Below, one piece after another: positions 43,637 to 62,081 of a stretch of DNA of 64,000 nt. Position 1 is the first letter of the stretch. Every line of letters starts with the position of its first letter. Origin of the DNA: Candidatus Latescibacterota bacterium (GTDB lineage: Bacteria; Latescibacterota; UBA2968); assembly GCA_965205975.1 (NCBI GenBank), contig OZ242195.1, forward strand, positions 4,416,001 to 4,480,000, written 5' to 3'. Made by a program: the position numbers and the translations under genes. The notes beneath the pieces are model-generated. The model searched no databases, was not told where the DNA came from, and saw only the letters and a list, made by a program, of their open reading frames with translations.

Positions 43637-44029
43637 TCAATCAGTCCCACCTGTATTCTGAGAATATTGCTCGTAAAAATCCCTTACATCGCGTGGTGTA
43701 AAAGGCGACCTGAGAAGTCCATCGCCAATTCTACGCAATAGTTCTTTAGAGGCAGGAGGTTGTTGCTTCCCTTTGGATAAGACAAATTCGACTTGCCATT
43801 CCTGGAGCAGGCAAGCATTATCATAGGCAATGACTGATTTTTTGGTGATAAAATCGTGATCTCCTGGCTGCAGGATAAGTGTTTGATCTTTGTGCTCACG
43901 CCATGATGTGATATTCACGATAACAGCTACTAACTGATTTTTTCCATAGTCTGCATAATCTGTCAAAAATATACATAAATGTTCACCCCCAAAATCAGGG
44001 TGAATAACACACACACCCGCCAGTCCCAT
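43637..44029 (-). CDS. Putative toxin partner of Panacea protein (possibly PemK/MazF-like)
   Basis: Starts 2 bp after Panacea stop; HLCIFL, VNITS, GDHDFITKKSVIAY. Confidence 0.6.
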   Translation of the reverse strand: MGLAGVCVIHPDFGGEHLCIFLTDYADYGKNQLVAVIVNITSWREHKDQTLILQPGDHDFITKKSVIAYDNACLLQEWQVEFVLSKGKQQPPASKELLRRIGDGLLRSPFTPRDVRDFYEQYSQNTGGTD

Positions 44030-44031
44030 AT

Positions 44032-44619
44032 TTATCTCGCCATGATGAGGGTTTCAAATTTCGCTTTGTATGCGAGATCTTTCTTAATCTCTGTCAAATC
44101 CTCACCCGCCCAGCCTACAGTTCGAAGGAGTGTTTCCCATTCTATCCGCTCGGATGATCCGCCCGGATCATTATATTCGGGTAAGGCCTGGAAGTAAGCT
44201 GTCAATTCTTCAAAGGTTTTGTGCCCAAATTTATCAAATATCTCGCCGATTAGATTGACCTCAGCGGGGGATAGCTCTCCCGTACCGGGGCCCGGTTTGA
44301 TGAGTCGAATACGATGGTCTATGGAATTTGAAAAAAAATGAGACCAGTAGTTGGGTGTATTACTATGGGAAAGCCTCTTTTTTTTGGGGGGATCAATAAG
44401 ATCATACGTATGGCTGGGCGTAGGACCATACAGAAGATTCTTTGGCGTGTCATAAGTTACTGGGCGTCCCCAAAGTTCCAATGCTTTTCTATCCACGAGA
44501 TAGATCAGCTTGAGAAGTTTATACATGTCAATGCTTTGACCGCCATTATGCTTTATCAACAATGCCGCAACCTGGGCAGCTTTCCGCTCTTTGAATTGAG
44601 GCATCTCTATTGTTGACAT
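44032..44619 (-). CDS. Panacea (DUF4065/SocA) domain antitoxin
   Basis: KLLKLIYLVDR, GRPVT, YGP, LPEY; AGGAGG RBS. Confidence 0.85.
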   Translation of the reverse strand: MSTIEMPQFKERKAAQVAALLIKHNGGQSIDMYKLLKLIYLVDRKALELWGRPVTYDTPKNLLYGPTPSHTYDLIDPPKKKRLSHSNTPNYWSHFFSNSIDHRIRLIKPGPGTGELSPAEVNLIGEIFDKFGHKTFEELTAYFQALPEYNDPGGSSERIEWETLLRTVGWAGEDLTEIKKDLAYKAKFETLIMAR

Positions 44620-44700
44620 AAATACCTCCTTATATTTTTTCTTCAAAAAATATAGGGAATTATATACTAAAAAGCGATTGGGAATTTGCTGGTAAAAATA

Positions 44701-44740
44701 AAAAAATCCCATCCTGTCTTCAGGGTGGGATTTTTGTTTG
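44701..44740. terminator. Bidirectional terminator, copy 2 of direct repeat
   Basis: AAAAAATCCCATCCTG-TCTT-CAGGGTGGGATTTTT. Confidence 0.85.
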
Positions 44741-49356: not shown

Positions 49357-50070
49357 ATGATGCCTTCAAGCCAGTTTGAGTTTTTCGGTTTTGCTCACAT
49401 TGCCGCGATGGGCGTCATTCTCGTTGTGCCGATTGTTTTGACTGTTGTTGTCAGGTGGCTGGATTCGGAGCGGGCGACTCAGGCGATCTGCTATGCGTTT
49501 GCGGGGGTGATCGCGCTCAACGAGGTGCTGAATTGGAGCTATCGCATAGCGACGGTTGGGGTGCATGAGTTTGTGCGGGAGTATATGCCGTTGCATGTTT
49601 GCGGAATTACTGTTTTTGCGGCTGTCGTTACGCTCGTTTTCCGACGGCAGACGGCTTACGAGATTGCCTATTTTTGGGGGCTTGTGGGAGCGACGAATGC
49701 GGTTGTGACGCCTCAGCTCGATATCGGCTATCCGCAGTATCGCTTTTTTCAATATTTTATTGTGCATGGCGGCATTGTCGCTGCTGCGCTGTTCGCCACG
49801 TGGGGCCTGGGCATGCGGCCGACAGCGAGATCGATTTTGCGCGTTTTTGTTTTGCTGAATGTTCTGGCTGTTGTTTTGATCGGCGTCAATTTGATGCTGG
49901 GGAGCAATTATATGTTCCTCTGTCAGCCACCTGTTACAAAATCGCCTTTTTTCTTTTTGCCGTGGCCCTGGTATCTGTTGTTCCTCGATGGTGTGGCGCT
50001 GGTGTTATTTTACGTGCTTTTTATTCCATTTTCGCGGAGAAGATCATACGATTCAAATTTGTTGAGATGA
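49357..50070 (+). CDS. YwaF/TIGR02206-family membrane protein
   Basis: MPLHVC, YFWG, FFQYFIVHG, SNYMFL, PWPWY. Confidence 0.88.
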   Translation: MMPSSQFEFFGFAHIAAMGVILVVPIVLTVVVRWLDSERATQAICYAFAGVIALNEVLNWSYRIATVGVHEFVREYMPLHVCGITVFAAVVTLVFRRQTAYEIAYFWGLVGATNAVVTPQLDIGYPQYRFFQYFIVHGGIVAAALFATWGLGMRPTARSILRVFVLLNVLAVVLIGVNLMLGSNYMFLCQPPVTKSPFFFLPWPWYLLFLDGVALVLFYVLFIPFSRRRSYDSNLLR

Positions 50071-52294
50071 TAGATCAATACGCAAAATATCTGATTCTCC
50101 TGATGCTCGTGGGCGCGAGTGCGTGTTTTGCGGCAACGCCTTTTACGCCTCGTTATCCGGATGCCGTGCATGAGTCCTGGCGCTGGCGATCTTTTCCGGA
50201 ATTGAAGGGGCAAAGGGCGTCGTGTTTGGCGCAGGATGGGGATGGCAATTTTTTATTTGGGACGGATAAGGGTATTTATCGCTATGACGGAATAAACTGG
50301 CATCTTTTTCCGTTTGATGAGGGGATGGTTGGGGCGCAGATTAACACGCTTTATGTCGCTCGGGATGGAGGTGTTTATGTGGGGTCTGATCGGGGTATTA
50401 GTCGTTTTGAGAATGGGGCGTGGGTACGGGTATTTCCATCTGAGGGAGAATGGAATGTCTGGGATTTGATGGAGGCACGGGACGGGAGTTTGTGGGCGGG
50501 TACGGAATGGGGTGCGCTCAGGTTGACGGTTCTCTGTGGTTTGCCGCGGGTGTGGATTGGTGGTTATATGATGGCTTTCTCGGTGGGGTGGTGGTTTTTG
50601 ATGGGGTGAGATGGACACATTATGCTTCTCCGGAGATGGCGCGCTATGCTTATGGGATCGGGCAGAGTTCTGATGGTGTTTTGTGGTTTGGCGGAAGGCT
50701 GTTCGGTTTTGATGGGGTGCGAGAGGTGCCATTTACTGGTCCGGGGAAGTTGACGAATGATTTTATCGATGCTGTTTATACACAGGGAGACCTGTGGTTG
50801 GGGTCCCGAACTTATGGGGTGTTTCGGTATGATGGGACGGCGTGGCAGCAGTTCGATTATGGCGATGGGCTGGCGGATAATGGGGTGCGAAGTATTTTCC
50901 AGGATCGGGCTGGTGCGATTTGGGTGGGGACAGCAGAGGGTGTTAGCCGGTTTGATGGGCGCACATGGTTGCCACAGGCTTTACCTTCTGGACTTCCGCG
51001 TACAGAGTTTTATGATTCGATTCTTCAGTCTGGAGACGGGGCACTCTGGCTCAATTCTGTATCTGATGTAGATGCCTGGCTCAGACGGTCAGAATCCGAG
51101 GGCGTTGCGGTGTGTACTCTGCGTACGATCCGATATGTGCCAGAGACAGACCCACCTGAAACCCTGGTGACCATTGTTCAGGATGAGGTCTCTCAGGGCG
51201 GAAAGATAAATTTCGCGTGGACAGGGATAGACGCCTGGCGAAGTACGTTGCGTGAAGATCTGCAATACGCCCATCGTTTGAACGGTGGGGGGTGGTCGCC
51301 ATATAGCGGGGATACGATCCTATCCTTTGAAGGTCTGGATGTGGGGACGCATACGGTTGAGGTTAAAGCGCGCGATCTGGCGTATAATGAAGACCCCACA
51401 CCGATTGTGATGTCGTTCAATATTGTTCCGCTGGTGTGGCGCCGTCTGTGGTTTATTAGCCTGATTGTGGGATTTGTGGTCCTTACGGGTTATCTGATTT
51501 CGCGGATTATTGTCAGGGATCGGAGGCTGCAGAAAGCAAATGAAGATCTTGCATCTGCTAATGAGACGCAACTCCTGCAGTCCGCGCGTCTGGTGTCGCT
51601 GGGGCAAATGGTTGCGGGCGTGGCGCACGAGCTTAACCAGCCGCTGACCGCTGTCGAGACAAGTGCTGGGGATATTTGTCTGCGGTTGAAGGAGGGTATG
51701 CCGCTTGAGACGGACGAGTTGAGGGAGATGATGGAGGATGTTCGGGGTGTGGTCGATAGGATGGCGGGTACTGTTGATCATTTGCGCGTGTTTTCGCGCG
51801 ATGTGTCCGAGGAGCCGCGCCAGGCGATGGATGTGAATGAGGTGATACAGAGTAGCTTGAAGTTGATGGGGTCGCAGCTTGAGAATCACGGGATTGATCT
51901 GGTTCTGGATCTTTCTGACGCGCTCCCAAAGGTCTGGGGACATTTGCATCCGCTCGAGCAGGTGGTTCTCAATTTGCTGTCAAATGCCCGGGATGCAGTG
52001 GATGAGCAGACGGAGACGGAGGGAGTGGGTTATGATAAGCAGATCTGGATTCGAACGCGCGTTGAGGACGATGCGGTTGTTATTGAGGTGGAGGATAACG
52101 GGGTTGGGATGGATGAGGCGACAAGGCAGCGTCTTTTTGAGCCTTTTTTTACGACGAAGGATGCGGACCGGGGCACGGGTTTGGGGTTGTCGATTATTTA
52201 TGCTATTGTTCGCAAGCACGATGGACAGATCGCTGTGGAGAGCGAACAGGGCGTGGGGACGATGTTCAAGGTGATGTTGCCGGTGTTGGAGTAG
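50067..52294 (+). pseudogene. Beta-propeller/Y_Y_Y sensor histidine kinase, frameshifted near 50526
   Basis: Propeller repeats (DGSLW, GIYRYDG) continue in a second frame; AHELNQP, NARDA, DNGVG, GTGLGL. Confidence 0.85.
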
Positions 52295-53822: not shown

Positions 53823-53909
53823 ACTGCACCTTTCTGTGCGTTGTTGAAAAGAACACACGTCAAAATATATTTTCAGGCGCAATAGGCAAGCGTATTTGAC
53901 CTGTTCTAT

Positions 53910-54001
53910 TGAGAAAAGCCCTATGGCCTATAGAAGGCCGTTGGGCTTTTGTGTGGTTTGTTCTCATTATTTGTGTCCCATATCTCAATGATATAGAATG
54001 A
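53910..54001 (+). repeat. ~90-bp hairpin-containing direct repeat, copy 1
   Basis: TGAGAAAAGCCC...GGGCTTTTGTGTGGTTTGTTCTCATT; copy 2 at 57988. Confidence 0.85.
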
Positions 54002-54015
54002 GTTACATTAATTTT

Positions 54016-54102
54016 TATTTATACGACAATTTTGTTGACGACGGTCTTGTTGTTTTATATATTTATACGACAATTTTGTTGACGACAATTCTGTCGTATA
54101 AA
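54016..54102 (+). promoter_or_regulatory. Promoter overlapped by direct and inverted operator-like repeats
   Basis: 27-bp perfect repeat at 54016 and 54060; TTTATACGACA/TGTCGTATAAA inverted pair; TTGACG-N17-TATATT. Confidence 0.7.
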
Positions 54103-54118
54103 AAGAAAGCGAGAGACA

Positions 54119-55363
54119 ATGAATTCATCGACTGGCCGTTGGGTAAGCGACGACGACTTTTTTAATCGCGAACGCGAGTTGCGGATACTGGAGACACGGG
54201 TCCGTGACGGCAATCACATATTGCTTACAGGACAGCGGCGTATGGGAAAGACCAGTATTGCCCGAGAACTCGGGCGACGGCTTGAAACTGAGGGTTGGAT
54301 TTTTCTCTTCGCTGATGTCGAGGGGGCGACCTGTGTGGAGGACGCAGTCGCAGACATCGCACAGGCCGTGCATCCCATTCGTCCCATTGCGTCTCGTTTT
54401 GCTATCGGGATGAAACGCTGGTTGGATGATAACATTGAGGAAATCAATGCGTACGAATTTCGCGTCAAAATTCGTGCTGGTCTGGATGCAGGAAGTTGGC
54501 GTCGTTACGGGGAACAACTGCTTCGCGATTGCGCTATGCAGGACAAGCCAGTGCTCCTCGTCATTGACGAGCTACCGATTCTTCTCAAGCGAATGCTTAA
54601 TGGTGAGGACGGTGTCAGACAAGTCGATGAGTTTCTGAGCCGGTTGCGCGGCGTGCTTCAAGGTATCGGAGACGGTTCTCTGGTCCTCATCGTATCCGGC
54701 AGCATTGGGCTTACCCCTCTGGTAAATCGGTTAGGCATACCCGATCGCATTAATCATCTCTATCCTTTTCGCCTGGGACCGTGGGACCGCAACACCAGTA
54801 TTGATTGTTTCCAAAGTCTCGCGGAGAGCTACAAATTACAAGTTGAGGACGACGTGGCAAACGCGGTGTATGACGCACTCGGCGTCGGCATACCTCACCA
54901 TGTACAGTCCTTCTTTGCTCGTTTGAGGGACCATGCCACCATGCATGGACGAGACCGGGTGACGGTGGAGGATGTCGAGGAGGTCTATCGCACAGGGCTT
55001 CTCGGTCCTTCAGGGCAGAACGATCTCGTACACTACGAGACGCGTCTCAAAGAGGCATTGGAAGATGAGAACCACACCATCGCTATGGAGATCCTCGCCG
55101 AAGCGGCCACCCAGGACGTTTTCACATCAGAAGCGCGGCGTTGCCTTGAAGAGCTATACGCCAGAGTGGTTGACGATGCACAGGGGCGTATTGCGGATAC
55201 ACTCGAAATTTTGATGCACGACGGCTATCTCGAAGATGGCGAAGATGGTTATCGCTTTCCGTCGCGCCTGCTGAAGGACTGGTGGTCGGCGCGTTTCCGC
55301 GATCACCACATACCCCTCGAAAATCGCCGTTCTGACGATGAACTACCGGGAGACGCGCAATGA
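54119..55363 (+). CDS. STAND-like (archaeal-type) P-loop ATPase
   Basis: FFNRERE, GQRRMGKT, LLVIDE, SGS, GIP; C-terminal LLKDWW. Confidence 0.88.
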   Translation: MNSSTGRWVSDDDFFNRERELRILETRVRDGNHILLTGQRRMGKTSIARELGRRLETEGWIFLFADVEGATCVEDAVADIAQAVHPIRPIASRFAIGMKRWLDDNIEEINAYEFRVKIRAGLDAGSWRRYGEQLLRDCAMQDKPVLLVIDELPILLKRMLNGEDGVRQVDEFLSRLRGVLQGIGDGSLVLIVSGSIGLTPLVNRLGIPDRINHLYPFRLGPWDRNTSIDCFQSLAESYKLQVEDDVANAVYDALGVGIPHHVQSFFARLRDHATMHGRDRVTVEDVEEVYRTGLLGPSGQNDLVHYETRLKEALEDENHTIAMEILAEAATQDVFTSEARRCLEELYARVVDDAQGRIADTLEILMHDGYLEDGEDGYRFPSRLLKDWWSARFRDHHIPLENRRSDDELPGDAQ

Positions 55364-57948
55364 ACAAGTCCGATCAACGTATTCGCAAGTTCAATCCGGG
55401 GACGTTCCTATCCGACGAGGAGGTGATTGAGCAGTTCGTGGTGAGAAAACATGAACTCAATATCGTGCTTGAGGTCTTGCGCGGAAATATCGATTCACCA
55501 TCGTGCCAGCATGTTCTGGTCGTTGCGCCTCGGGGGCGGGGAAAGACGATGTTGCTCGCGCGCGTCGCGGCGGAGTTGAATACTGATGATGGACTCTCCG
55601 AATGTCTTTTGCCGGTTCGGTTTATGGAAGAGAGTCACGAGGTACTCAATATCGCGGATTTCTGGCTCGAAACCCTGTTCCACCTTGCGCGGGAGAGCGC
55701 CAGACATGATCCCGTACTCGCACAGGAACTGCGAGAGACGCACGCCGATCTGAGAGATCGCTGGCGCGAAAAGGAACTCGCAGATCGCGTCCTTGCTGCT
55801 GTCCTGGACGCATCGGACCGGCTGGGCAAAAAGCTCGTTCTCATGGTCGAAAATCTACAGTCAATTGGCGAGAACGTGGATGACGATTTCGGCTGGCAGC
55901 TACGCGGCGCATTGCAATCAGAGCCTCAGATCATGTTGCTCGCCACCGCCACGAGTCGCTTCAAGGGTCTGGACGACGCGGAGCAACCGTTCTTCGAGCA
56001 GTTCCGAATCTTGGATTTGGAACCATTGAACACCGAAGAATGCCGTCGTCTGTGGCAGGTCGTCAGCGGTGACGCGGTGAGCGACCACGGGATCAGACCG
56101 CTCGAAATTCTGACCGGAGGTAGTCCCCGTCTTCTGGTAATCGTTGCCGAGTTCGCGCAGCATCGGTCGTTGAGCCAGTTGATGGAAGAACTGGTGACAT
56201 TGATCGACGACCATACCGAGTATTTTCGCAGTCACCTGGAGGTCCTGGCCAGTGTCGAACGTCGCGTGTATCTCGCGGTGATTGATCTTTGGCAACCGTC
56301 GAACGCGGGCGAGATCGCGACACGGGCGCGCAAGGATATTCGAACCGTATCAACCCTGCTCAGGCGACTGGTCAACCGGGGTGCGGTTATCGTGGAGGGG
56401 ACTGGTAGGAAACGAATGTACGTTGCCGCGGAACGTCTCTACAGCATCTATTACAAACTGCGACGCGAACGCGATGAAGCGGCTGTTGTCGCAAATCTCA
56501 TCTACTTTATGGCAGTGTTCTATAGCGAAGAGGAACTGGTAGAGATGTTCGACAAGCTGATTGCGGAATCGGCGCGATTGCCAGTGATTCGCGAGGGTTT
56601 TGAACGGGCAATCGCCGAACAGCCGCAAGTCGGCAGTGTATTCTCTAACATAGCACGGTCAAGCATTGATCAGGCATCTGACCTCGCTACGTCAATCGAG
56701 AATGAGAGCGTCGAACGACTGTTCGAAGAGATTACTACAGCTTTAACAGAAGGGGCATTCGAGAAGGTTATCGAGACCGTGGACCAGGCTTTTACTGTTC
56801 GGAGCACAAATTGGTCTCGGGTACCAGAGTCATTGATCGCCTTGGCATTTCTTAACAAGGCGTTAGCTCACGAGAGACTCGGCGAGTTGGAGATGGCGGT
56901 AGTGTTTTATGATGAGGTGATCGCACGCTTTGGCGACAGTGATGCAATTGATCTCCAAGAGCAGGTCACTTGGGCGTTGTGCGGCAAGGGAAATACGCAA
57001 GTACAACTGGGTGATTTTGCTGCTGCATCAGCGTGTTATGATGAGGTGATCACACGTTTTGGTGACAGTGATGCACCTGCTTTCCAGGATCGTGTTGCTT
57101 GGGCATTGTGCGGCAAAGGAGATGTGCACAGACAACTTGGCGAGTTTACGTCGGCGGTAGCGTGTTATGATGAAGTAATCGCCCGCCTTGGTGACAGCGA
57201 TGCAATTGATCTCCAGGAGCGGGTCGCCTGGGTATTATGCAAAAAGGGAGATGTGCAAAGCCGACTCGGAGAGTTGGAGGCTGCGATAGCGTGTTATGAT
57301 GAAGTGATCGCCCGCTTTGGTGACAGCGAGGTTCTCATGCTCCAGGAACGTGTTGCCTGGGCATGGTCTGGCAAGGCAGATGTGCAAGGGCGACTCGGTC
57401 AGTTTGTGGCTGCGCTTTCTGCCTACGACGAAGCGGTTGTCCGCCTGGGTGATAGTGATGCACCCGATCATCAGGCTCCAGTCGCTTGGACATTGTTCAA
57501 AAAGGGTATTAGACAAATCAATATGGGCCGTGCGAAAGAAGCTCTACACACCTGTGAAGAGATTGAAAGAAGACTTGGTGCCTTGACTGGCAATGAGAAG
57601 ATCGAGTTTACATGGCGCGTAAGGTGTATGCGGGTTATGGTACTGATGGTGCAGAAAAAACGTCGGGCCGTTGTGGACATGTTCCGGTCTGCGTATGCTG
57701 TGTTCGTGCCTGATAACGAAACTATAATGAATGAGATGCTACATTTTGCGCCTGAGTTGATTGCACAGGGTGTCTTGGAGCGTGACCTTATCGAGATCCT
57801 GTCCAGCGACAAGGAAAAATTGGACGCATTGGTACCCCTCATTGTTGCCCTGCTACAGCGTACCGGCGAGGAGGTTCGTGCGCCTGTGGAAGTCCTTGAG
57901 GTCGCGAAGGATATCAACAAGCGCATTGAAAAAAGAATGGCGGATTGA
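55360..57948 (+). CDS. STAND-like ATPase-wHTH-TPR protein, copy 1 (5 x 43-aa repeats)
   Basis: PRGRGKT, LMVENL, TGGSPR, EIATRAR..LRRLVNRG; ATGA overlap with upstream ATPase. Confidence 0.88.
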   Translation: MNKSDQRIRKFNPGTFLSDEEVIEQFVVRKHELNIVLEVLRGNIDSPSCQHVLVVAPRGRGKTMLLARVAAELNTDDGLSECLLPVRFMEESHEVLNIADFWLETLFHLARESARHDPVLAQELRETHADLRDRWREKELADRVLAAVLDASDRLGKKLVLMVENLQSIGENVDDDFGWQLRGALQSEPQIMLLATATSRFKGLDDAEQPFFEQFRILDLEPLNTEECRRLWQVVSGDAVSDHGIRPLEILTGGSPRLLVIVAEFAQHRSLSQLMEELVTLIDDHTEYFRSHLEVLASVERRVYLAVIDLWQPSNAGEIATRARKDIRTVSTLLRRLVNRGAVIVEGTGRKRMYVAAERLYSIYYKLRRERDEAAVVANLIYFMAVFYSEEELVEMFDKLIAESARLPVIREGFERAIAEQPQVGSVFSNIARSSIDQASDLATSIENESVERLFEEITTALTEGAFEKVIETVDQAFTVRSTNWSRVPESLIALAFLNKALAHERLGELEMAVVFYDEVIARFGDSDAIDLQEQVTWALCGKGNTQVQLGDFAAASACYDEVITRFGDSDAPAFQDRVAWALCGKGDVHRQLGEFTSAVACYDEVIARLGDSDAIDLQERVAWVLCKKGDVQSRLGELEAAIACYDEVIARFGDSEVLMLQERVAWAWSGKADVQGRLGQFVAALSAYDEAVVRLGDSDAPDHQAPVAWTLFKKGIRQINMGRAKEALHTCEEIERRLGALTGNEKIEFTWRVRCMRVMVLMVQKKRRAVVDMFRSAYAVFVPDNETIMNEMLHFAPELIAQGVLERDLIEILSSDKEKLDALVPLIVALLQRTGEEVRAPVEVLEVAKDINKRIEKRMAD
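56881..57525 (+). repeat. 129-bp coding tandem repeats x5 (TPR-like)
   Basis: TATGATGARGT recurs at 56908, 57037, 57166, 57295, with a diverged fifth unit. Confidence 0.9.
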
Positions 57949-57987
57949 GATGGGCGGCTGGCAGGTTTTATATATCTGAGGCTCTAA

Positions 57988-58079
57988 TGAGAAAAGCCCA
58001 ACGGTCTATAGAAGGTCGTTGGGCTTTTGTGTGGTTTGTTCTCATTTATTGCGTGTCATATCCCAATGGTAGAGAACGA
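57988..58079 (+). repeat. ~90-bp direct repeat, copy 2 (probable terminator for copy-1 operon)
   Basis: AAAAGCCCAACG...CGTTGGGCTTTT, same tail as the 53910 copy. Confidence 0.85.
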
Positions 58080-58094
58080 TTTATATCGCCTCTT

Positions 58095-58162
58095 AATTTT
58101 GTCAACAATTTAGTTGACAAAATTTTTTCTAATATTATTTTGTCAACAGTTTCGTTGACAAA
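58095..58162 (+). promoter_or_regulatory. Two palindromic operator-like sites overlapping a TTGACA
   Basis: AATTTTGTCAAC-N6-GTTGACAAAATT and TTTGTCAAC-N6-GTTGACAAA. Confidence 0.75.
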
Positions 58163-58190
58163 GATTTAATGAATCATCAGGAGACGCGCA

Positions 58191-60650
58191 ATGAACAATT
58201 CCGATCGTCCAATCCGCAAGTTCAATCCGGGGACGTTTCAGTCCGACGAGGAGGTGATTGATCAGTTCGCGGTGAGGAAACACGAACTCGATACGGTGCT
58301 TGGGGTGCTGCGTAGGAATATCGGTTCACCATCGTGCCAGCACGTTCTGATGGTCGCGCCTCGGGGTCGGGGAAAGACGATGTTGCTCGCGCGCGTCTCG
58401 GCGGAGTTGAATGCTGATGGCGAGTTTTCCAGGTGTTTTTTGCCGGTTCGGTTTATGGAGGAGAGTCACGAGATATTCGATCTCGCAGATTTTTGGCTCG
58501 AGACGCTGTTTTATCTCGCGCGGGAGAGCGTCAGGCACGATTCCGCGCTCGCACAGGAACTGCGAGAGGCGCACGCCGATCTGACCAATCACTGGGATGA
58601 GGAGGCGCTCGCGGATCGCGCTCGTGCCGCTGTTCTGGACGCGGCGGACCGATTGGGCAAAAAACTCGTTCTTATGGTGGAAAATCTGCAGGTGCTCTGC
58701 GAAGATGTGGATGACGATTTTGGCTGGCAGTTGCGCGGCGTGTTGGAGTCCGAGCCTCGGATCGTGCTGCTCGCCACTGCGACGAGTCGCTTTGCGGGTC
58801 TGGAAAATGCGGCGGAGCCGTTTTTTGAGTTTTTCCGAATAGTCGATCTGGAACCGCTGAGTACCGAGGACTGTTGTCGTCTGTGGGAGATGGTCAGCGG
58901 CGATGCGGTGACTGAACAGGAGATCAGGCCGCTCGAGATCCTGACCGGTGGCAATCCCCGTCTTCTAATTATGGTTGCCGAGTTCGCGCAGCACAGGTCG
59001 TTGCGCCAGTTGATGGAAGAACTGGTGACGCTGATTGACGAGCATACCGAGTATTTTCGCGGTTATCTGGAGGCTTTGCCTAGGAGCGAGCGCCGCGTGT
59101 ATCTCGCGTTGATTGATTTTTGGCGACCGTCGAGTACGAGCGAGATCGCGGCGCGGGCGCGTATGGGGGTTCGGCCCGTATCGACTATGCTCGGTCGGCT
59201 TGTGAACAGGGGTGCGGTCGTCGTGGAGGGGGCCGGCAGGAAGCGATTGTACGCCGCAGGGGAACCTCTCTATAGCATCTATTACAAGTTGCGGCGCGAG
59301 CGCGACGAGGCGACAGTTATGAGGCGTCTGATCCATTTCATGATGGCGTTCTACGGGATAGGCGAGTTGTACCAGATGTCTGGTCGGCTGAGTTTGGAGG
59401 CGGCGGAGTCAAAGGTTATTCGCGAGGGGATTGAGCGTGCGCTCGTCGAACCACCGGACGTTGAGGACAGTTTTTTACGCGTGGCAGGGTCGGCTGTCGA
59501 ATATATATCGGACAGGGCGACGGCAAATGCGCCATTCACAGCGGAACTGCGTTTAAAAGAGGAGATCCAAACGGCGCTCGATGAGAAAGAATTTGAAAGG
59601 ATTATCGAGATTGGTGACCATTTTATCGCTTCAGGAAGCGTGGATGCATCTCTGATGCCAGAGTCTCTGCTTGCCTACATATTGCATATGAGGGCTATTG
59701 CTTATGAAAAATTGGAGGATTTCCAGGGGGTGGTCGCGGTTTGCGATGAGATGGTTGAGCATTTCGACGACGCGAGCGACCATACACTCCTGGCGCGTAT
59801 GGCCCGCGTATTGATCCACGGGGCAAGAGCGCGATATGAACTCGGAGAGTTGGGGTTGGTGATGTCGGCATATGAGGAGGTGATTGAGCGTTTTGGTTCC
59901 AGCGACGCGCCCGATTTCCAGTTTCCGGTCGCTCTGGCGCTGTTAAAAAAGGGAGATTTGCAAGTTCAACAGAGAGAGTTGGGGCTGGCGGTGTCTGTAT
60001 ATGAAGAGGTGATTGCCCGCTTTGGCTCCAGTGATGCATCGGGGATTCAGCTTTTGGTCGCCTGGTCGTTGTCCCAAAAGGGAGATTTGCAAGCCCAACT
60101 GGGAGAGTTGGCGCTGGCAGTATCTGCGTATGAGGAAGTGATCGCGCGTTTTGGTTCAAGCGATGTGCCAGCGATCCGGGTTCTGGTCGCCTGGTCGTTG
60201 TCCCAAAAGGGTATGATACAAATTAAGGTGGGGCGTATGAAAGAAGCTATGCTCATAAGTGAAGAGCTTGAGGGAAGACTCGGTGCGTTGGCTGACGATG
60301 AGAAGGTGGTGTTTGTATGGCGAGCAAGGTATGTCCATGCTTTGGCACTGCTGCTAAGGAACAGACTACGGATGGCTATGGATGTGTTTCAGTCGGCGTA
60401 TGCGGTGTTCTTATCTGACAACGAAACGATGATGTATGAGATGCTACAACTCGTGCCCGATTTGATCGCAAATGGTGCCTCGGAGCCTGATCTTGTCGAT
60501 ATTCTCCTGTCCAGGGGGAAATCCGATGTGTTGGAACCTCTTATTGTTGCCTTACGACAGCGTTCCGGCGAGGTGGTTCGTGCGCCTGTGGAGGTTCTTG
60601 AGGTGGCAAGGGATATTAACAAGCGTATTGAATTTTTCCGAAATGTATGA
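58191..60650 (+). CDS. STAND-like ATPase-wHTH-TPR protein, copy 2 (4 x 43-aa repeats, first degenerate)
   Basis: Colinear with copy 1: KFNPGTF, PRGRGKT, TGGNPR, VRAPVEVLEVA. Confidence 0.88.
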   Translation: MNNSDRPIRKFNPGTFQSDEEVIDQFAVRKHELDTVLGVLRRNIGSPSCQHVLMVAPRGRGKTMLLARVSAELNADGEFSRCFLPVRFMEESHEIFDLADFWLETLFYLARESVRHDSALAQELREAHADLTNHWDEEALADRARAAVLDAADRLGKKLVLMVENLQVLCEDVDDDFGWQLRGVLESEPRIVLLATATSRFAGLENAAEPFFEFFRIVDLEPLSTEDCCRLWEMVSGDAVTEQEIRPLEILTGGNPRLLIMVAEFAQHRSLRQLMEELVTLIDEHTEYFRGYLEALPRSERRVYLALIDFWRPSSTSEIAARARMGVRPVSTMLGRLVNRGAVVVEGAGRKRLYAAGEPLYSIYYKLRRERDEATVMRRLIHFMMAFYGIGELYQMSGRLSLEAAESKVIREGIERALVEPPDVEDSFLRVAGSAVEYISDRATANAPFTAELRLKEEIQTALDEKEFERIIEIGDHFIASGSVDASLMPESLLAYILHMRAIAYEKLEDFQGVVAVCDEMVEHFDDASDHTLLARMARVLIHGARARYELGELGLVMSAYEEVIERFGSSDAPDFQFPVALALLKKGDLQVQQRELGLAVSVYEEVIARFGSSDASGIQLLVAWSLSQKGDLQAQLGELALAVSAYEEVIARFGSSDVPAIRVLVAWSLSQKGMIQIKVGRMKEAMLISEELEGRLGALADDEKVVFVWRARYVHALALLLRNRLRMAMDVFQSAYAVFLSDNETMMYEMLQLVPDLIANGASEPDLVDILLSRGKSDVLEPLIVALRQRSGEVVRAPVEVLEVARDINKRIEFFRNV

Positions 60651-60762
60651 AGACATTAAAATGCATTAAGACATAATCTGGATGCGTGATCTTGCTTTTT
60701 GCCATTTCCGTCTTATTTTCCCAAAAACAAACGATTGTAAATGTGGGAAGAAGGGAAAAAGA

Positions 60763-62081
60763 ATGGCTGAGCAGGTCAGCATGACGGTTCTGGTGATCGA
60801 TGACGATGCACATATCCGAACTGCTATTGGAAAGTTTCTCATTGCGAGAGGTCATACGGTTATCGAAGCGGCAGATGGCGAAAAGGGTGTAGAGGTGGTG
60901 GAGAGCCAGGCTGTGGATATTGTGATTACGGATGTGAAGATGCCTAAGATGGATGGGTTTGAAGTGCTTCGGCAGGTGCAGTCTATCTCTCCTGAGACCG
61001 AGGTGATTGTGATTACGGGTGTGAAAGAGGCCGAGAATGCGTTTCGCGCGTTGCGAGAAGGGGCGTTTGATTTCTTTAACAAGCCTTTCAAGGTGGAGGA
61101 GTTGAATGCGGCTATCCGACGCACTGTGCGCTACCAGGCGCTTCGAAAAGAGAAGGATAGGGTTCAGGCGAGGCTGGATAGGATGGAGGCACAGGAGCGA
61201 GAAAAGAGCGGTTTGAATGCGATTATAGGGGAAAGTGAGGCGGTTGTGAAGATGAAGGCGCAGATCCGACAGGTGGCTGCGACTGATTATACGACGGTGC
61301 TAATTGTTGGGGAGACGGGTACGGGGAAGGAACTGGTTGCGCGAGCTGTGCATAGCGAGAGCAATCGCGCTGGCGGTCCATTTGTTGCTGTGAATTGTTC
61401 TGCGATTTTGATCTGGCAGATGGGGGTACGCTGTTTCTGGATGAGATTGGGGATATGCCGCTGGATATGCAGGTGCGCCTGTTGCGAACTCTGGAGGATC
61501 GATGCATCAGACCCGTGGGGAGTAGTCGTGAGATAGCTGTGGATGTGCGCGTGGTTGCAGCGACTAATAGAGTGCTTAGTGTAGCGGTGCGGGAAGGGTC
61601 TTTTAGAGAGGATTTGTATTACAGGCTGAATGTGTTCGCGATTCAGGTGCCGCCGTTGCGCGAGCGAGCGGGGGATGTTCTGTTTTTGGCGCGGCACTTT
61701 TTGGCTGGTTATGCCCGCGATTTGCGAAAGCCGTTGATGGGGTTTTCAGAGGAGGCTGAGGATTTGCACCAGCAGCAGGTGTTTCCGGGCAATGTTCGCA
61801 TGCTGAAGAATGCGGTTGAGCGGGCTGCTATTTTGTGCGGGGATGGGGAGATTGAAGCGGATGATCTGGGTTTTGAGCTATTTGAGGGTGGTTCGACCAG
61901 TGGCGTTGAACATGTGGTGCAGAGCCTATCCGGGAATCAGATGAATTTGTCCGCATTTGAGAAGGCACTGCTTTGTGAGGCGTTGCAGCGAACAGAGGGG
62001 AACCAGGTTCAGGCAGCCGCGCTTCTGGGTATTTCGCGGATGGTGCTGAGGAATAGGATGAAGAGGTATGGGTTGGTTTGA
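60763..62081 (+). pseudogene. NtrC-type sigma54 response regulator with deletion/frameshift near 61407
   Basis: [16 protein letters not shown] then jump to [15 protein letters not shown] in another frame; ESELFG/GAFTGA segment absent; Fis HTH. Confidence 0.9.

Follow-up and report, generated by a model that had tools for sequence, protein, structure and literature searches.

What does a bacterium gain from neighbouring genes that all encode ATPases, none of them joined to a recognisable effector, and which of these genes form the unit that is kept together? The question is raised by a 64,000-nucleotide stretch of a Candidatus Latescibacterota genome (contig OZ242195.1, forward-strand positions 4,416,001 to 4,480,000), here called the window. 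Gene A (54119-55363, forward strand, an open reading frame (ORF) call) encodes a STAND/ORC-like AAA+ ATPase of 414 aa whose C-terminal winged helix is acidic. B1 (55360-57948, forward strand), whose start overlaps the stop of A by 4 nt, encodes an 862-aa ATPase with a basic TrmB-like winged helix-turn-helix (wHTH), a variable linker, TPR-like repeats of 43 aa and, at the C-terminus, a conserved helical cap. B2 (58191-60650, forward strand) encodes an 819-aa B1 paralogue and is predicted to be a separate transcription unit. All three are the sole copies across the complete, single-contig 5.56-Mb genome. An earlier reading made from the DNA letters (the sequence-only reading) had delimited the same three ORFs and noted the coupling of A and B1, both of which hold; it proposed one helper ATPase with interchangeable sensors. 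The conserved unit proves to be the A-B pair and not the trio, and this pair is real, widespread and unnamed. Tentatively, and as something quite possible though short of probable, it can be read as a STAND cassette of two genes, with B as the likely repressor of the shared promoter and the likely restraint on A; such a cassette is predicted to be a toxin-antitoxin-like defence switch, and B2 would be a separately promoted copy of B that persists without A.

Conservation and composition of the A-B pair

Metagenome loci were the best 80 of the 335 found with an A profile, a few of them near-duplicates. B lies directly downstream of A in all 63 loci with room for it (the other 17 of the 80 end in or just after A), mostly at a spacing of -20 to +42 nt. 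In a scan of 140 genomes of the same phylum (completeness >=85%, E<=1e-30, 13 scored candidates in each genome, related genomes not being independent), B occurs in 51 genomes and A in 40; none of these 40 has A without B, and 11 of the 51 B-bearing genomes have no A match. Among individual A matches, 49 of 51 stand directly before B, the remaining two being broken copies about 1.5 kb upstream of it. The linkage of the two ATPase families, on which the sequence-only reading depended, is thus conserved. The identities of A and B also co-vary (Spearman 0.94, 60 pairs), which shows co-inheritance, not contact.

The A family counts 2077 representatives at 50% identity (E<=0.001 to A). A is 71-76% identical between Latescibacterota, Nitrospirales and Vicinamibacterales, and close loci are found in named genomes of these groups. 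Plasmids of Clostridium and Moraxella carry the A-B pair and plasmids of Agrobacterium and Sphingobium a lone B (6 of 13 hits viewed), and one Nitrospirales pair (L004, 6294-15779) sits between two IS3 transposases in a composite-transposon-like arrangement. No phage carriage of A was found in viral contigs, nor was phage carriage seen in 50,697 phage records; a single 62-residue B-like match was seen. The cassette is patchy in distribution and appears to be mobile and horizontally spread.

Among the loci examined, the trio is found in one genus only, as the product of a duplication. B is present in 18 of 20 genomes of this genus; B1 and B2 fall there into distinct clades (bootstrap 93% and 100%, respectively), and the ratio of nonsynonymous to synonymous substitution rates (dN/dS) is about 0.1-0.3 in the core for both. 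Judged from these trees, the duplication that gave rise to B2, a B1 paralogue, took place near the root of the genus. The block before B2, with its hairpin, promoter-like site and operators, was duplicated from the region before A: copy 1 (53905-54008, forward strand, 104 nt) is 85% identical to copy 2 (57983-58086, forward strand). Terminator-like hairpins lie at 53914-53950, where the hairpin would insulate the A-B1 unit, and at 57992-58028, between B1 and B2.

A was correctly described earlier as a P-loop ATPase with an intact Walker A (GQRRMGKTS) and a DE Walker B (LLVIDE). Across 83 A homologues, the Walker A RRxGK(T)S and the Walker B DE are near-invariant; a G-x-P region is also conserved, with P259 invariant. 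Pfam returns weak AAA_16, AAA_22 and ATPase_2 matches. The predicted model of A (predicted local distance difference test score, pLDDT, 94) best matches the folds of archaeal SSO1545 (2fna) and PAB2304 (2qen), with Z 26 and a root-mean-square deviation of 3.3-3.4 Å over ~330 residues, followed by NLR resistosome cores, Orc1/Cdc6 and TnsC. The same two archaeal proteins are also its best sequence-profile matches, at 16-18% identity.

In Pfam, B1 and B2 have weak AAA_16 and ATPase_2 matches together with a TrmB-like wHTH (about residues 298-357) and TPR. Their identity, 57% overall and also 57% over the C-terminal cap, is higher in the ATPase (77%) and the wHTH (69%) and lower in the repeats (45%) and the linker (41%), which agrees with the colinear core and divergent linker and repeats reported before; B1 is longer by one 43-aa repeat. 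Motifs were counted in 59 non-redundant B homologues (94 reduced at 80% identity). The Walker B of B1 and B2, LMVENL, indeed lacks the usual Asp, as had been pointed out, but its first acidic position is E (E in 48 homologues, D in 11), and the more telling change is the Asn (N165) that takes the place of the catalytic acidic residue in 59/59. GxGK (Walker A Lys62) and a sensor-2-like Arg257 are equally invariant (59/59), and a GGxPR motif is conserved. Because GxGK, N165 and R257 are invariant, B appears to be selected for nucleotide binding without the catalytic acid, and its hydrolysis is probably slow or nil. The Walker B motifs of A (DE) and B (E/D-N) are complementary.

The profiles of A and B are homologous across the ATPase and wHTH (97%, E=1.2e-10). 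The net charge of the wHTH (HTH and wing) differs between them, with a median of +4 in B (91% positive, n=58) and -3 in A (8% positive, n=83). The B1 model (pLDDT 85) has PH0952 as its top fold match (E=4e-9, template modelling score 0.27-0.35), followed by TPR arrays, 2qen and Orc1/Cdc6. Motifs and predicted models place both A and B among the NTPases of the STAND/ORC-CDC6 clade (MNS/ATPase_2-like), having a P-loop, a helical domain with a GxP motif and a winged helix.

The earlier remark that no effector is visible is upheld by Pfam, which detects no nuclease, TIR, SIR2 or protease domain in the window proteins, no non-repeat effector domain in 39 full-length B homologues (E<=1e-7) and no effector domain in 15 B C-terminal parts (E<=1e-3). 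Lengths among the 120 closest B homologues vary between 499 and 1205 aa. Irrespective of the repeat type, a helical cap (L-x-P-L-x-x-A-L ... E-V-x-E-V-A-x-D-I) is retained, the alignment of which contains no RxxxxH. For the three proteins, PADLOC and NCBIfam give weak partial matches and no family-level match. PHROGs gives weak P-loop matches only. The search for effector fusions to A returned only 2 long matches, both A-B fusions on single contigs, which is weak evidence either way. Among P0391, P0392 and P0229, two single-contig proteins consist of part of A fused in frame to B, and one has the A ATPase joined straight to TPRs and the B cap; these joins may be real fusions or sequence errors.

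Promoter palindromes and the one-way loss of A

The promoters of A and of B2 are both overlapped by copies of a 14-bp palindrome, CAACA-N4-TGTTG, with a 15-bp period. Before A, a sigma-70-like promoter (TTGACG 54035-54040, 17 nt, TATATT 54058-54063) lies amid four palindromes (at 54024, 54039, 54068 and 54083), which form two pairs at the 15-bp period around its -35 and -10 elements and make up the putative operator array of the A-B1 unit (54024-54096). Before B2, two sites (58103 and 58144, spanning 58103-58157) with the same presumed role lie over the promoter-like TTGACA (58114-58119). The sequence-only reading, right about the ORFs, had overlooked these operator arrays, the duplicated promoter block and the independent B2 promoter.

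Sites were scored as CAAC-N6-GTTG with one mismatch allowed, against 50 dinucleotide shuffles and with ten duplicate loci dropped. At least one site precedes the A-led unit in 75/89 upstream regions and at least two in 65/89 (shuffle means 7.1 and 0.3; maximum 2 for at least two), and some regions without a site reflect misplaced gene starts. All 14 B genes that lack an A in front of them have two or more sites (shuffles 0), and 92 of 153 neighbouring sites are spaced 15 bp apart. Since the palindromes persist before A-less B genes, and since the wHTH is basic in B and acidic in A, B likely represses the cassette's own promoter.

Two further roles for the palindromes were considered and rejected. 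They are not the ends of a mobile element, as a single site was found in just 1 of the 60 regions that follow B, and two sites in none. Nor do they mark a wider regulon: in the 5.56-Mb genome two strong sites occur together only at the A-B1 and B2 promoters, and the top single sites elsewhere are mostly inside ORFs (7 places inspected). The latter result bears on the idea that the cassette is a non-defence signalling or transcription module, with B a STAND regulator (MalT/PH0952-like) of other genes and A a modulator of B. This idea draws on the clear predicted operator, on PH0952 being a putative STAND-TPR transcription factor, on the lack of significant defence enrichment (see below) and on the stability of the locus in the genus; yet the genome has no second strong operator array, no neighbour gene is conserved across the loci and the distribution is patchy and mobile, which together make it decidedly unlikely.

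Several individual sites are worth recording. At G000:C1:4141640-4141960, a duplicated AT-rich intergenic element of ~213 nt lies between convergent genes, and each copy bears a near-perfect operator palindrome; it is possibly the relic of a lost cassette. One strong palindrome at G000:C1:4726041 stands just upstream of a small gene cluster, presumably of nucleotidyltransferase-like and HTH type, and is probably the cluster's own operator. Upstream of the divergent homologues at L083, L091, L100 and L106, the 4-N6-4 palindrome and the 15-bp period are retained with a changed core (CAAG, CAAA, AAAC), which is a possible handle on wHTH-operator specificity. The lone B of an Agrobacterium plasmid (L029, 2286-10195), which has an operator array, is transcribed divergently from a two-cyclase and ThiF operon of defence type and could control it.

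In 10 genomes (G008, G010, G015, G019, G039, G073, G104, G121, G126 and G070), some of which share one event, A carries an internal deletion or an interruption next to an intact B, and it is lost preferentially although B is the larger target. With A repeatedly lost and B preserved intact under purifying selection, A looks like a costly part that depends on B and not like a helper that the cassette requires. Two related signals were set aside: '1 TGA' within nine A matches was rejected as a disruption, the TGA being the true stop of A in three loci inspected, and no claim is made of selection for in-frame A deletions, with five in frame and others not.

Losses within the genus of the trio are larger. 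Six of its genomes hold B2 alone, with no A match, and others hold B beside a broken A. Deletions joining the two block copies remove A and B1 in relatives (junction 53909-57977 in run X2). G013 and G002 have a common deletion junction (93% identical over 1.5 kb), for which a single shared loss of A and B1 is the parsimonious reading; the duplicated block favours independent recurrence of the same deletion, and G003 has a similar junction. Between G013 and G002, B2 has a ratio of nonsynonymous to synonymous differences (pN/pS) of 0.29 (p=5e-10), and B2 pairs from A-bearing genomes give 0.23 and 0.34.

These values speak to the claim that A is an indispensable helper which B1 and B2, as interchangeable sensors, can each activate. 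The similar ATPase cores of B1 and B2, their differing linkers and repeats, and the purifying selection on both in A-bearing genomes, where B2 could act on A in trans, would fit such an arrangement. The claim is nevertheless markedly improbable: the loci seen have the trio in one genus only, B2 is preceded by a hairpin, promoter and operators of its own and is under selection in genomes that have neither A nor B1, and A is the part repeatedly lost or broken beside an intact B.

The selection on B2 without A would also follow if B were a complete protective unit, with A an optional resetting or tuning ATPase that recycles or disassembles it by ATP hydrolysis, B itself lacking the catalytic acid. 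Stand-alone B genes with operators stand beside cyclase-type defence genes on A-less Agrobacterium and Sphingobium plasmids, the complementary Walker B motifs would suit such a division of labour, and an effector-less NACHT protein, bNACHT01, protects against phage according to the parts of the report considered here (bioRxiv 10.1101/2022.07.19.500537). Such a unit is unlikely, if worth keeping in view, since many phyla retain A immediately ahead of B, the repeated deletion of A would not be expected of a beneficial resetting helper, and B has no known output domain.

The B1-B2 junction of relatives is also a hotspot for the insertion of toxin-antitoxin (TA) pairs (L001 13699-14693, L002 13855-15330, L005 13960-15161, and upstream of B2 in L024, L027 and L020). 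From their translations, these TA-like pairs are taken here to be mazEF-like, Fic/Doc-like and HigA-like. RNA runs contain small shares or contigs of the stretch; coverage in one of them is higher for B2 than for A and B1, which is not proof of expression or of its level.

A possible defence switch and its context

How a self-repressing cassette with a dispensable A might work can be outlined by building conjectural steps on the observed pair, its linkage, operator array, nucleotide-binding motifs, one-way A loss and B2 selection. The wHTH of B would bind the 15-bp-period palindromes as Orc1/Cdc6 bind origin repeats, keeping expression low. With its E/D-N Walker B, B would be a slow or non-hydrolysing nucleotide switch, held closed by the TPR arm and the conserved cap. 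An infection cue would free B and derepress the operon, after which B and A might co-oligomerise through their homologous cores. A, with a complete catalytic Walker B and no sensor, would then give a costly output, either ATP-driven assembly on DNA or ATP burning, leading to growth arrest. A lone B may still be of use, either by acting as a weaker sensor-effector or by giving immunity against an incoming A. A bolder and somewhat unlikely version of the toxin-antitoxin-like switch is a bacterial NLR pair in which B acts through its core winged helix as autorepressor on the 15-bp-period array and keeps A, a sensor-less paralogue, in check, and in which, on infection, the co-polymer itself would be the weapon, with no fused enzyme.

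Several observations weigh against this switch. No known toxic domain was found in A. B2 remains under purifying selection after the loss of A, so that B cannot be merely an antitoxin. A was seen intact beside a damaged B once, in G089, where B is frameshifted at a run of eight G and other B copies are present, and a distant Segatella pair is an exception to the dependence of A on an intact B, its second gene encoding a 298-aa ATPase-wHTH that has neither TPR nor cap. Some B homologues have no TPRs, 18 of the 120 closest being 499-522 aa long with no room for a repeat array, which weakens the sensor step. As for repression, the motif was first read by eye from the same upstream regions, and 12 of the 14 operator-bearing B genes not preceded by A are the B2 of one genus (seven of them in genomes without intact A), the other two being on A-less plasmids. 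In characterised STANDs, moreover, the winged-helix domain packs on the nucleotide-binding domain and is structural, a separate domain binding DNA, as far as the consulted parts of that source describe (PMC6468293); the DNA-binding precedent is Orc1/Cdc6.

The genomic neighbourhood adds to these points. PADLOC (E<=1e-15) matched 18/204 neighbours of the loci and 9/139 control genes from 20 evenly spaced 8-kb stretches of the one genome that contains the window (Fisher p=0.54), a difference that stays non-significant once obvious false matches are removed (14/204 and 5/139, p=0.23); neighbour ORFs were chosen by a crude length and composition rule, and many loci are short. Among the 150 of these 204 neighbours that were scanned for gene type, many are housekeeping genes. 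In the window itself, the flanks are a two-component system and a glycoside hydrolase, and thus non-defensive. On the other side, defence-type genes adjoin 5 of the 6 plasmid loci viewed, some loci neighbour a type IIG restriction-modification gene, PD-Lambda-2 or HmaC/DUF499, and the TA pairs inserted between B1 and B2 hint at mobility or conflict. The defence proposal of the sequence-only reading therefore stays plausible from architecture and evolutionary behaviour, without significant support from its neighbourhood check.

Mobility and decay could also be those of a selfish addiction-type cassette without defence benefit, and the TPRs those of a sponge-symbiosis factor. The one-way loss of A fits the decay of an addiction module, and sponge or coral metagenome is the label of runs that contain a small share of the stretch, a weak sign. 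Both are very unlikely, given homologues in Clostridium and Moraxella and on Agrobacterium and Sphingobium plasmids, an operator without the 3' copy expected of an element end, and selection on a lone B2, which needs a benefit.

The two-component genes that flank the trio have irregularities of their own. The sigma-54 response regulator 3' of B2 (60682-62081, forward strand) is split over two frames (284 and 228 aa), compared with one ORF of 468-493 aa in relatives, and the split reflects a pseudogene or an assembly error. Upstream, a beta-propeller sensor kinase (49599-52294, forward strand) seems shortened or split, with 614 aa and an upstream piece in another frame, its relatives measuring 1042-1073 aa. 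Two small neighbouring ORFs (43637-44712, reverse strand) resemble a TA pair, presumably a DUF4065/Panacea-like antitoxin and a PemK-like partner. An Rfam scan gave 0 matches.

If the proposed switch is true, an effector-less, self-regulated hetero-STAND design would be added to bacterial immunity, in parallel to the paired NLRs of plants, and a STAND core winged helix would act as a sequence-specific repressor. First experiments would be simple, helped by the predicted operator, by natural variants that lack the TPRs or A, and by the fact that loss of A runs one way. If the cassette is not a defence system, it would still be an uncharacterised mobile regulatory unit.

Relation to known systems

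The A/B family is undescribed in the full-text literature searched; the tables of the 589 clades of PMC13581612 may classify these ATPases. Six RefSeq accessions of the family and three motifs are absent from 7 supplements of that paper. Avs/AVAST and the other defence STANDs it treats (Lee et al. 2026, PMC13581612) share with the cassette a STAND core and TPR-like C-terminal repeats. By contrast, Avs proteins need their effector domains for killing, and the A-B cassette has no fused or adjacent effector. The sections of the paper considered describe no two-STAND system. A STAND without a recognisable effector is also found in bNACHT01, which differs, from what its report states in the parts considered, in belonging to the NACHT clade, in being a single gene and in having a short non-repeat C-terminus.

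Among structurally related proteins, the archaeal MNS/ATPase_2 members SSO1545 and PAB2304 are the best fold matches of A, and no B-like partner was seen for them here. Orc1/Cdc6, as in the 2qby heterodimer on origin DNA, resembles the cassette in its AAA+ and wHTH fold, its two paralogous ATPases and its repeated palindromic DNA sites; the cassette differs in that its sites overlap its own promoter, in its TPR extension and in its lack of a replication context. The PH0952/MalT regulators, as far as they are covered in the parts of PMC6468293 consulted, have the same architecture of nucleotide-binding oligomerisation domain, arm and TPRs, PH0952 being the top match of B1. They use a separate DNA-binding domain, whereas B has the core wHTH only and no regulon was found for it. 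The likeness to type II toxin-antitoxin modules is one of organisation, namely a coupled two-gene operon, predicted operators over its own promoter and one partner not found alone, with the two exceptions of G089 and Segatella.

The closest counterpart is nSTAND2, a predicted mobile two-gene operon with a STAND and wHTH protein followed by an nSTAND2, wHTH, TPR and HEPN/GT4 protein (Kaur, Iyer, Burroughs, Aravind 2021, PMC8195603), a source that also cites the Npun2340/2341 family (Leipe et al. 2004). On the parts of that description considered, both systems have adjacent genes that each encode a STAND and wHTH core, with TPRs on the second, and in both a hetero-multimer with a catalytically impaired second ATPase is predicted. 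They differ in that the second nSTAND2 protein has eroded NTP-binding motifs, whereas B keeps GxGK, N165 and R257, and in that nSTAND2 carries a HEPN/GT4 effector, none being detected in B homologues by Pfam. No operator is mentioned in the consulted sections of the nSTAND2 description. Pfam nSTAND2 (PF20702) is not among the B1 and B2 matches at E<=0.01, and a PF20702 search of their own genome was empty, its control being equally silent. The earlier statement that no system with this architecture has been characterised therefore stands in part: the family is unnamed in the libraries and papers searched, and a two-STAND operon layout had been predicted before, in nSTAND2. Judged from sequence comparison, the cassette is nearest to the two-gene layout of nSTAND2 but represents a different family.

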